This document shows positions 10,521 through 56,935 of a DNA stretch of 64,000 nucleotides, one piece after another. A program made the position numbers and the translations under genes. Below the pieces are notes generated by a model. That model was given only the letters and a program-made list of their open reading frames with translations. It had not been told where the DNA came from and ran no database searches. Location: assembly GCF_036507355.1 (NCBI RefSeq), contig NZ_AP027877.1; one strand, written 5' to 3'. Source of the stretch: Escherichia coli (lineage in GTDB: Bacteria; Pseudomonadota; Gammaproteobacteria; Enterobacterales; Enterobacteriaceae). How positions within the stretch are numbered: the stretch's first letter is position 1; the number at the start of each line of letters is the position of its first letter.

Positions 10521-10831
10521 TCGTGTTTATGACCTGTTAAAACTTCGCGAAGTGATAGGGCAGTATAAAGGGTACAGTGTGAAATTCCAGACTCTTACCT
10601 GATTGATGATTCTCTATTCTCCTGTGATATTTATCATCCTGTATGGGGGGAAATAGATGTACAAGCGCCATTTTGCTGTACAAATAACCTACGAAAAGCC
10701 CAACGAAATTAATTGCAAATAAACGAAAATTGCTGGAAATTATGCTGATGTTAATTATTTGTGAAATAGTTAACAAGCGTTATAGTTTTTCTCTGGTAGC
10801 ACAGAATAATGAAAAGTGTGTAAAGAAGGGT

Positions 10832-15392: not shown

Positions 15393-17036
15393 ATGGAACT
15401 TCTTGTACTTGTCTGGCGGCAGTATCGCTGGCCATTTATCAGTGTGATGGCGCTAAGCCTCGCCAGTGCGGCATTAGGCATTGGCTTAATTGCTTTTATC
15501 AATCAGCGCCTTATCGAAACGGCGGATACCAGTCTGCTGGTGTTGCCGGAGTTTCTGGGATTATTGCTGCTGTTGATGGCAGTCACTCTCGGATCGCAAC
15601 TGGCGCTCACCACTTTGGGGCATCACTTCGTTTACCGACTGCGTAGTGAATTTATCAAGCGGATTCTGGATACCCACGTCGAGCGCATTGAACAACTCGG
15701 TAGCGCCTCGTTGCTGGCGGGATTAACCAGCGATGTGCGCAATATCACCATTGCTTTTGTGCGTCTGCCGGAACTTGTGCAGGGGATCATTCTCACTATC
15801 GGTTCCGCGGCGTATCTGTGGATGCTGTCGGGCAAAATGCTGCTGGTAACGGCTATCTGGATGGCGATCACCATCTGGGGCGGTTTTTTGCTGGTGGCGC
15901 GGGTGTACAAACATATGGCGACCCTGCGTGAAACCGAAGACAAGCTGTATACGGATTTTCAAACTGTACTTGAAGGGCGCAAAGAGCTGACTCTGAACCG
16001 GGAACGCGCCGAGTATGTGTTTAACAACCTCTACATTCCTGATGCGCAAGAGTATCGCCATCATATTATTCGCGCAGACACCTTCCATCTTAGTGCCGTG
16101 AACTGGTCAAACATCATGATGCTGGGCGCAATCGGCCTGGTGTTCTGGATGGCGAACAGTCTCGGTTGGGCTGATACCAACGTTGCCGCGACCTATTCGT
16201 TGACGCTGTTATTCCTGCGTACGCCGCTGCTTTCGGCGGTTGGCGCATTACCGACGCTGTTGACGGCGCAGGTGGCGTTTAACAAGCTGAACAAATTCGC
16301 ACTCGCGCCTTTCAAAGCGGAATTTCCGCGTCCGCAGGCGTTTCCCAACTGGCAAACGCTGGAGTTGCGTAACGTTACGTTTGCTTATCAGGATAACGCA
16401 TTTTCCGTTGGGCCGATTAACCTCACTATCAAACGTGGCGAACTGCTGTTTCTTATTGGCGGCAACGGTAGCGGAAAATCTACGCTGGCGATGTTGCTGA
16501 CGGGGTTGTATCAGCCGCAAAGCGGCGAAATCTTGCTGGATGGCAAACCTGTCAGCGGCGAACAACCGGAAGATTATCGCAAACTGTTTTCGGCAGTATT
16601 TACCGATGCCTGGCTGTTTGATCAGTTGCTGGGGCCAGAGGGAAAACCGGCTAACCCGCAACTGGTTGAGAAGTGGCTGACGCAGTTGAAAATGGCTCAT
16701 AAACTTGAGTTAAATAACGGGCGTATTCTTAACCTCAGGTTATCGAAAGGCCAGAAAAAACGCGTAGCGCTGTTGCTGGCTTTAGCAGAAGAACGAGATA
16801 TTATTCTGCTTGATGAATGGGCGGCGGACCAGGACCCGCATTTCCGTCGTGAGTTTTATCAGGTACTGTTGCCGCTGATGCAGGAGATGGGTAAAACCAT
16901 ATTCGCCATTAGTCATGACGATCATTACTTTATCCACGCTGACCGCCTGCTGGAGATGCGCAGTGGGCAACTGAGTGAACTGACTGGTGCGGAGCGTGAC
17001 GCAGCTTCCCGCGACGCAGTTGCACGTACTGCGTGA
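15393..17036 (+). CDS. yojI: ABC transporter YojI, fused permease/ATPase (547 aa)
   Basis: ORF track; TM domain then Walker [10 protein letters not shown] and ABC signature. Confidence 0.9.
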
Positions 17037-17175
17037 TGTTCTGTTCCAGCCTGGCGGCGTTCTGCCGCCAGGTAAATATCCTGAAAATCCCGCCTTTGCA
17101 ATGCCCTTATAATTTATCAACGAAATTATAATGTTTCTAAAATTAGAATATAATTTATAAACATTATTTAAATGT

Positions 17176-17191
17176 TGTTACTTAAGTGTTA
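17176..17191 (+). promoter_or_regulatory. candidate ArcA-type direct repeat (TGTTA ... TGTTA, 11-bp spacing) in the mqo upstream region
   Basis: TGTTA at 17176-17180 and 17187-17191, about 60-75 bp upstream of the mqo ATG, inside an AT-rich stretch. Confidence 0.4.
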
Positions 17192-17239
17192 CCGTTGATG
17201 CCGCGCAAATCTCACCTGCAATAAAGCGACTAAAAGTAA

Positions 17240-18898
<1,659 letters not shown>

Positions 18899-18899
18899 T

Positions 18900-19035
18900 G
18901 ATGTGCCACATCCGGCATGGTATGCCGGATGTGGCGTATGCTGATAAGACGCGCCAGCGTCGCATCAGGCAACCGGCTCGGGCGTTAGATGCGGCGTAAC
19001 CGCCTTATCCAACCTATGGGGTGCCGCACTTCACG
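18900..19035. repeat. REP element cluster between mqo and eco
   Basis: Imperfect palindromes of the GCCGGATG...CATCCGGC / CGCCTTATCC type read directly. Confidence 0.7.
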
Positions 19036-19040
19036 GCAGT

Positions 19041-44477: not shown

Positions 44478-44772
44478 GATGCATGTCAACCACAAATCTA
44501 TCATTCCCCCCCGATATATGTTTATTTTATGTAAAATCAATTTATGTAAAAAGTCACATCATTGTAGTTAAAAAGGTTGAGTTAGATCGCAGAAACGGGT
44601 ACATATAGCCCCGCAAACGTGACCACGCCCGCAGATATTACTTAAATCAGAGCCATAGAGGCCACGCAGGCGAGGCATCAATCTTTACGATCTGTATAAA
44701 GACGGATTGTTGATGATGTGTTAAAATTGATGTAAATAAATTGTGAAGTAAATGTGCTTCCGGGGAAAATAA

Positions 44773-56765: not shown

Positions 56766-56935
56766 AGGAGTCACGTCTTAGTAACGATTAATTAACAATG
56801 ACAGTGTAAAGTTATATGACAGCAATTGAAATTGGTCTGGATTGTTAATGCGATGAAGTGTGAGGGCGATCAATCAACGAGTGAAAATTGCGGGCATAAG
56901 GTGTTCAGGAAGCGCAAAATAGAAGATTGGTATAA

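Follow-up and report, generated by a model that had tools for sequence, protein, structure and literature searches.

The direct repeat TGTTA-N6-TGTTA upstream of mqo in the Escherichia coli DNA analyzed in the present study (64,000 nucleotides, the whole of which is referred to as the window) is very probably the core ArcA box of the mqo promoter, at which ArcA-P bound to positions 17164-17195 would occlude the sigma-70 promoter. The in vivo occupancy of ArcA, ArcA-dependent repression, the transcription start site, and oxygen-dependent sigma-70 occupancy have been shown for the identical sequence in K-12. Since the site is a published operator, nothing new is added to the biology of E. coli, and an indel of one 11-bp repeat unit is the only element of possible novelty.

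The gene order in the window, as taken from matching genomes, is ada-alkB-yojI-mqo-eco. The region was matched in 5421 of 5426 complete E. coli genomes, in which it is annotated as yojI followed by mqo, and an identity of at least 99% over 17119-17251 was found in 5350 of these 5421. The alignment with K-12 MG1655 showed 100% identity from 17118 to beyond the mqo ATG; the nearest difference upstream of 17118 is position 17115 (T here, A in K-12), which lies inside the first copy of the AT-rich motif TATAATTTAT. This identity of the promoter region, which extends from 17118 to the mqo ATG, should allow the data published for K-12 to be transferred to the present strain base for base, with a window position corresponding to 2322028 minus the U00096.2 coordinate. 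The gene and its ArcA site are located as follows.

17252-18898, plus strand: mqo coding sequence (malate:quinone oxidoreductase, 548 aa), from the open reading frame and the annotation of matching genomes.
17175-17192, plus strand: 18-bp ArcA box TTGTTACTTAAGTGTTAC with two TGTTA direct repeats, from the sequence, the match to Table S3 of Park et al. (2013), and the matrix score.
17164-17195, plus strand: complete ArcA site with three repeats, TTATTTAAATGTTGTTACTTAAGTGTTACCGT, -39 to -8 relative to the start site, from Tables S4 and S6 of Park et al. (2013), mapped via the K-12 alignment.

The TGTTA repeats occupy 17176-17180 and 17187-17191, with centers at 17178 and 17189, i.e., 11 bp apart, and are located 61-76 bp 5' of the mqo ATG (17252). 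An earlier note on this DNA had drawn attention to this repeat and to the two TATAATTTAT copies, and its coordinates for both motifs and their distance to the mqo ATG proved to be exact on sequence reading and in pattern searches. A search of both strands of the 64-kb window gave a single match to TGTTA-N6-TGTTA (0.08 expected), and when the local AT-rich region was shuffled by dinucleotides, the pattern arose in 0.1% of the shuffles; the pair is far beyond chance. An 18-bp ArcA matrix was built from the 114 other published boxes (Park et al. 2013, Table S3), with mqo being left out. On this leave-one-out matrix, the mqo box scored 20.7 bits, which placed it third among the 127,966 positions of the window and fifth among 115 known boxes; the published boxes span about 9-21 bits. 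The same score was reached in 0.05-0.1% of local shuffles (0.05% for shuffles of 17100-17195), and no position elsewhere in the mqo-yojI spacer was above 9.6 bits, a value at chance level. The site accordingly combines TGTTA-like direct repeats at an 11-bp center spacing with a score within the bona fide range for ArcA boxes.

The other top matches to the ArcA matrix in the window, at 18-21 bits, were 10748-10765, 56781-56798, 44707-44747, and 44518-44535. The sequences at 10748, 56781, and 44707 are those of the rcsD, yeiQ, and yejG1 ArcA boxes as published, which are in the training set of the matrix, while the matches at 44730 and 44518 adjoin the yejG1 box; the window contains several known ArcA operators. 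A search of 17037-17251 for a CRP site (TGTGA-N6-TCACA with 3 or fewer mismatches) gave no match, and a search of the spacer for Rfam families gave only a sub-threshold chance match.

The claim of the earlier note that the 11-bp TGTTA repeat corresponds to the ArcA-P pattern and to ArcA repression of mqo has been published for the identical sequence, and the ArcA reading of the repeat is supported and already known. The ArcA occupancy and the mqo expression in an arcA mutant, which had been proposed as checks, were both looked up in reports on K-12. ArcA ChIP peak calls were placed at U00096.2 2304831 and 2304821, which correspond to 17197 and 17207 in the window (Park et al. 2013, PMC3798270, Table S1) and are within about 25 bp of the TGTTA pair. 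The mqo ArcA box was assigned to the K-12 minus strand at 2304850, which corresponds to 17178, the center of the first TGTTA (Park et al. 2013, PMC3798270); its sequence, ttgttacttaagtgttac (20.5 bits), is exactly 17175-17192 (Table S3 of the same study). The published site with three repeats, TTATTTAAATGTTGTTACTTAAGTGTTACCGT, in which the individual repeats have 2.7, 11.4, and 5.7 bits, is exactly 17164-17195 (PMC3798270). In anaerobic growth, mqo was up 31.8-fold in the arcA deletion (p = 7e-8; Park et al. 2013, PMC3798270), which is the fifth largest effect among the leading rows of Table S5, a table that is apparently ordered by fold change (PMC3798270). Evidence from lacZ fusions in an arcA mutant for the repression of mqo by ArcA was reported earlier by van der Rest et al. 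(2000), as cited in Park et al. and Ernst et al. (2008). Regarding the binding of purified ArcA-P to mqo by footprinting or gel shift, the column for previous DNA binding is empty in Table S6 of Park et al. (2013), and none was found in the literature searched. The main text of Federowicz et al. (2014) has no mention of mqo, and in PMC6048880 ArcA and mqo appear only as deletions, not as regulation.

The start site of mqo and the promoter elements that may serve it are as follows.

17203, plus strand: transcription start site of mqo (G) with a 49-nt 5' UTR, from the supplement of Kim et al. (2012), with a sigma-70 ChIP-seq peak nearby.
17167-17172, plus strand: putative -35 hexamer TTTAAA (4/6 matches), our own reading relative to the mapped start site.
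17187-17195, plus strand: putative extended -10 element TGT-TACCGT, -16 to -8 of the start site, from its position and conservation.

A single mqo start was recorded at U00096.2 2304825, with 10 reads, a 49-nt leader, and the upstream sequence ...GTGTTACCGTTGATGCCG (Kim et al. 2012, PMC3415461); the position 17203 rests on this one data set and its 10 reads. The start is downstream of the TGTTA repeats, not upstream, while the earlier note had regarded an upstream start together with a lack of ArcA occupancy as a refutation; ArcA occupancy is reported. The sigma-70 ChIP-seq peak at 2304822, corresponding to 17206, had a value of 199.8 aerobically versus -17.6 anaerobically (Myers et al. 2013), and reduced anaerobic sigma-70 occupancy at mqo was also reported along with the position of the ArcA site from -39 to -8 (PMC3798270).

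The -10 hexamer would be TACCGT at 17190-17195, preceded by TGT at 17187-17189 in an arrangement of the TGnTAnnnT type, with a 17-nt spacer to TTTAAA. TTG(T/C)TACCGT is nearly invariant in 36 orthologous promoters (4 Escherichia, 13 Citrobacter, and 19 Enterobacter-group loci), and TTTAAA-N17-TACCGT is kept in the Enterobacter-group orthologues, which is consistent with this assignment of the two hexamers. The TGTTA nearer the start site provides the TG as well as the TA of the putative extended -10 element. Another promoter, TTGATG-16-TGCAAT (17195-17200 and 17217-17222), was predicted from in vitro holoenzyme binding, this spacer being reported to contain in vitro sites for RpoD holoenzyme and, by SELEX, for H-NS (Shimada et al. 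2014). Under that promoter, the ArcA site would touch the -35 edge only. Its -10 hexamer, TGCAAT, is without the usual A at the second position, and TTGATG is not kept in Enterobacter; it is less likely than TTTAAA-N17-TACCGT. A consensus promoter and terminator scan of 16900-17400, the threshold of which is above the TTTAAA-N17-TACCGT promoter, returned two weak 9/12 promoter-like sites, at 17114-17143 on the plus strand and 17192-17163 on the minus strand, and neither fits the mapped start.

Since the TTTAAA-N17-TGT-TACCGT promoter appears to sit inside the ArcA site, we infer that repression at mqo occurs by occlusion. The site at -39 to -8 overlaps the promoter of the mapped start, the hexamers being our own assignment, and the sigma-70 peak is lost anaerobically; promoter occlusion has been argued as a general mechanism of repression by ArcA (Park et al. 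2013, PMC3798270). In the proposed mechanism, the kinase ArcB would phosphorylate ArcA when oxygen is scarce, and ArcA-P would bind 17164-17195 as a head-to-tail dimer together with a weaker third repeat upstream. The whole sigma-70 promoter, with TTTAAA as the -35 hexamer, a 17-nt spacer, and TGT-TACCGT, firing at 17203, would be contained in this stretch, and bound ArcA-P would keep RNA polymerase off the promoter and thereby turn mqo off. Mqo is a membrane-bound enzyme that feeds the electrons of malate into the quinone pool, and its shut-off without oxygen is part of the ArcA program that closes down respiratory carbon oxidation.

The two copies of TATAATTTAT are located further upstream.

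17108-17117, plus strand: TATAATTTAT copy 1, -95 to -86, from the pattern search and the K-12 alignment.
17149-17158, plus strand: TATAATTTAT copy 2, -54 to -45, in an AT-rich stretch where an UP element would sit, from the pattern search.

The consensus of the UP element is reportedly AAAWWTWTTTTNNAAAA, at about -59 to -38. Copy 2 agrees with it at 12/15 positions at -57 to -41, a level equaled in 48% of local shuffles, and window-wide matches to the consensus were at expectation. A weak minus-strand ArcA-like box of 9.2-9.6 bits lies over each copy, and 9.6 bits was reached in 46% of shuffles of 85%-AT DNA. Both the ArcA-like boxes and the UP-consensus match are at chance level for this composition.

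TATAATTTAT itself was matched twice against 0.08 expected window-wide; when the local sequence, which is 80% AT, was shuffled by dinucleotides, 4-7% of the shuffles contained an exact direct repeat of at least 10 bases. The sequence of copy 1 is TATAATTAAT in K-12 and E. albertii as well as in FDAARGOS_943, the nearest genome, and the exact 10-mer repeat hinges on one strain-specific base, the T at 17115. The exact pair is real here, but is a marginal, strain-specific coincidence in AT-rich DNA. The sequence TATAATTTATAAACA, comprising copy 2 and its flank, is kept in Escherichia and most Citrobacter, not in Enterobacter, which has neither copy, and copy 1 shows no conservation.

It is unlikely that the two TATAATTTAT(n)AAC repeats, which lie at a distance of 41 bp, act as specific functional elements, whether as -10 elements of upstream promoters, as nucleation sites for H-NS, or as weak opposite-strand ArcA half-sites extending the repression complex. 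Three perfect TATAAT hexamers (17108, 17127, and 17149) are consistent with the first possibility; however, yojI directly follows mqo in the list of Kim et al. (2012), so that no start is recorded in the TATAAT-rich stretch between the two entries of that data set of limited depth. A mapped start about 7 nt downstream was not found for the TATAAT inside either copy (Kim et al. 2012), and these motifs do not serve the start site at 17203 as -10 elements. The repeat extends to 13/16 bases (TATAATTTATCAACGA versus TATAATTTATAAACAT), and the in vitro H-NS SELEX and RpoD-holoenzyme sites mentioned above fall in the spacer, but repeats of 10 or more bases are produced by the above fraction of shuffles, K-12, E. 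albertii, and the nearest genome have another base in copy 1, and neither copy is present in Enterobacter. The minus-strand ArcA-like box over each copy favors the third possibility, as does the region aligned to copy 1 in many Citrobacter, which has an opposite-strand ArcA-like box of 17-18 bits; however, 9.6 bits is attained by nearly half of the AT-rich shuffles. Of the two interpretations offered by the earlier note for these repeats, promoter elements or simply AT-rich sequence, the latter agrees with an unconserved repeat and the shuffle rate of 4-7%, and the former is less well supported, no start being recorded downstream of either copy in the list of Kim et al. (2012). The best supported view is that the TATAATTTAT copies are generic AT-rich DNA upstream of a promoter and not a specific repeated operator, and such DNA may provide generic UP-like help to polymerase or attract H-NS.

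Another structure precedes this stretch, just after the yojI stop codon, which ends at 17036.

17049-17073, plus strand: GC-rich hairpin of 10 bp between yojI and the mqo promoter, fold of -28.2 kcal/mol, z = -5.1.

The hairpin, CCTGGCGGC-GTTCT-GCCGCCAGG, starts 13 nt past the yojI stop and is partly kept in K-12, with changes on both arms; no U-run was found downstream of it. It belongs to a divergent patch, 16300-17107, which covers the 3' third of yojI and the hairpin region with 85-97% identity to K-12 per 100-bp bin, the lowest identity being 69% in 17000-17100. Around the patch, the identity to K-12 is 97-100% in alkB, in the 5' part of yojI, and in mqo, and the patch, which looks like a small recombination import, stops just 5' of the mqo promoter. 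Only 3 of 5421 E. coli genomes were at least 99% identical over 16900-17400, which takes in the last ~200 bp of the patch and the conserved promoter. The 100% identity of the promoter to K-12 versus ~69-90% just upstream was considered as a sign of strong selection and rejected; because an identity of 97-100% also holds for mqo and most of yojI, the stretch of low identity reflects local divergence and is not the baseline. On the other side of mqo, the mqo-eco spacer (18899-19040) is 142 bp here versus 488 bp in FDAARGOS_943 and about 714 bp in K-12, and the K-12 alignment collapses after about 18950; the mqo-eco intergenic content is variable.

A search with the Mqo protein returned 80 loci, among which the ArcA box was followed across genera. 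At the orthologous position, E. whittamii and Escherichia sp. E1V33 have the identical box (20.7 bits), E. albertii has TTGTTGCTTAAGTGTTAC (18.1 bits), and most Citrobacter have TTTTTACTTAAGTGTTAC (16.5 bits). The site is not strictly conserved because the G of the upstream repeat has been lost in Citrobacter (TTTTA). Only ...AAAGTTG(T/C)TACCGT..., a single repeat fused to the -10 element, is found in Enterobacter, Lelliottia, and Leclercia; TTGTTAC-TTAAG-TGTTAC-CGT in Escherichia and Citrobacter thus faces TTG(T/C)TAC-CGT in these three genera. The distance between the conserved anchors T(A/T)TAAACA and CACCTG was 49 nt in Escherichia (4/4 loci) and Citrobacter (11/13), and 38 nt in Enterobacter (12/14, with the other two at 39 nt), Lelliottia (2/2), Leclercia (2/2), and Enterobacteriaceae bacterium RIT714 (1/1). 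The difference between the lineages is exactly 11 bp, i.e., one ArcA repeat unit (17181-17191 in the window versus loci L015-L036). TTTAAA-like hexamers occur twice, 11 bp apart, and because of this doubling, the TTTAAA-N17-TACCGT geometry would survive the indel by a switch of the -35 copy.

By parsimony, neither an insertion nor a deletion between the two copies of TGTTAC is favored. We tentatively suggest, from these alignments, that an exact one-repeat indel of 11 bp may have made or removed the strong ArcA box with its two TGTTA copies, which would then be specific to certain lineages, a possibility with rather less than even support. If the indel is functional, the ArcA sensitivity of a respiratory gene would be tunable in one step with the promoter left intact, and the indel would be usable for the study of repeat gain and loss in response-regulator operators. 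As a separate observation, many Citrobacter (L011-L014, L017, L034, and L037) have a second, opposite-strand ArcA-like box, ATGTTATTAATACGTTGA, of 17-18 bits at about -145 from the mqo ATG, which is about 60 bp further upstream and aligns to 17117-17134. E. coli has ACATTATAATTTCGTTGA at 17117-17134, which is not in the 12 best-scoring boxes of the spacer, i.e., it is below about 5 bits.

These comparisons also bear on the view that the TGTTA pair is a by-product of the promoter, with the downstream copy being the TG-n-TA of an extended -10 element, the upstream copy a chance occurrence, and ArcA acting elsewhere or indirectly. The downstream TGTTA does overlap the putative TGT-TACCGT, and Enterobacter-group promoters keep that single TGTTA-type copy only; however, a pair found in 0.1% of local shuffles, a score of 20.7 bits on a matrix without mqo, ChIP peak calls within about 25 bp, and the lack of any other spacer position above 9.6 bits make this view very improbable. 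The PhoP box is (T/G)GTTTA-N5-(T/G)GTTTA, and TGTTAC-N5-TGTTAC matches this type of hexamer at 4/6 positions in each half. That the repeat is mainly bound by PhoP or another OmpR/PhoB-family regulator reading 11-bp-spaced repeats, the effect of ArcA being indirect, is hardly credible in spite of this match and of the empty column for in vitro ArcA binding at mqo (Park et al. 2013, Table S6), given the ArcA ChIP peak on the site, a box in the best five of 115 ArcA boxes, the 31.8-fold derepression in the arcA mutant, and no report of another regulator at the site in the literature searched.

The operator reading with ArcA does not account for all of the anaerobic control of mqo. A further element lies in the leader.

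17212-17219, plus strand: TCACCTGC in the mqo 5' UTR, +10 to +17, from leader conservation and complementarity to FnrS.

Of 44 Enterobacterales mqo leaders, 39 contain CACCTG(C); it lies between -38 and -51 relative to the ATG in all but one of them, which has it at -100, and was kept in Serratia and Winslowiella despite their diverged surroundings. TCACCTGC is the perfect complement of nucleotides 1-8 of FnrS (GCAGGUGA, from K-12), and the FnrS regulon of E. coli has been reported to include mqo; on these grounds, 17212-17219 is likely a pairing site for FnrS. The duplex energy of the whole FnrS molecule with the mqo leader was no better than that of shuffles, 48% of which do as well, and only the 8-nt seed and the conservation of the target are noteworthy. 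By RNA-seq, mqo was up 6.85-fold in an fnr mutant, and fnrS is activated by ArcA (Park et al. 2013, PMC3798270). Because of the derepression in the fnr mutant and its membership of the FnrS regulon, mqo is not under the sole anaerobic control of ArcA, and part of the 31.8-fold arcA effect could be indirect. We infer a feed-forward shut-off, in which the promoter is blocked by ArcA and a small RNA, induced by both ArcA and FNR, probably pairs with the leader.

Regarding FNR itself, a sequence resembling its site, TTGAT-GCCG-CGCAA at 17195-17208, overlaps the start site and matches TTGAT-N4-ATCAA at 8/10 positions. It is probably not bound or functional, because mqo is without an entry in the FNR ChIP peak lists searched and the sequence is not kept in Citrobacter; in Myers et al. 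(2013), mqo is in the expression and sigma-70 tables only and has no entry in the FNR peak lists searched.

Taken together, mqo is a fully mapped example with an operator, promoter hexamers, a start site, and a leader, and it suggests that an ArcA half-site and an extended -10 element can share the same bases, the hexamers being those assigned here. The closest known system is the mqo ArcA site of K-12 (Park et al. 2013, PLoS Genet 9:e1003839, Tables S1, S3, S4, and S6), to which the 18-mer, the 32-bp three-repeat site, the distance to the ATG, and the flank from 17118 are all identical. The present strain differs from K-12 in having T instead of A at 17115 and a divergent yojI 3' end upstream of 17107, while the site itself is the same.

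Among other ArcA operators, the three-repeat operators of icdA and acs, which were footprinted by Park et al., are similar to that of mqo in their 11-bp direct repeats with one weak outer repeat, in their overlap with the -35 and -10 elements, and in the anaerobic loss of sigma-70 occupancy. In contrast to icdA and acs, the mqo site is known from ChIP, without an in vitro footprint in Table S6 of Park et al. (2013); in mqo, it is the upstream repeat that is weak, and the promoter-proximal repeat appears to double as an extended -10 element. More distantly, the PhoB and OmpR boxes resemble that of ArcA in having tandem repeats spaced by about one helical turn, to which the regulator binds as a head-to-tail dimer (text of Park et al.). 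However, the repeat sequence of PhoB and OmpR is another one and these regulators usually activate through polymerase contact from upstream, whereas the ArcA site of mqo covers the core promoter and represses.
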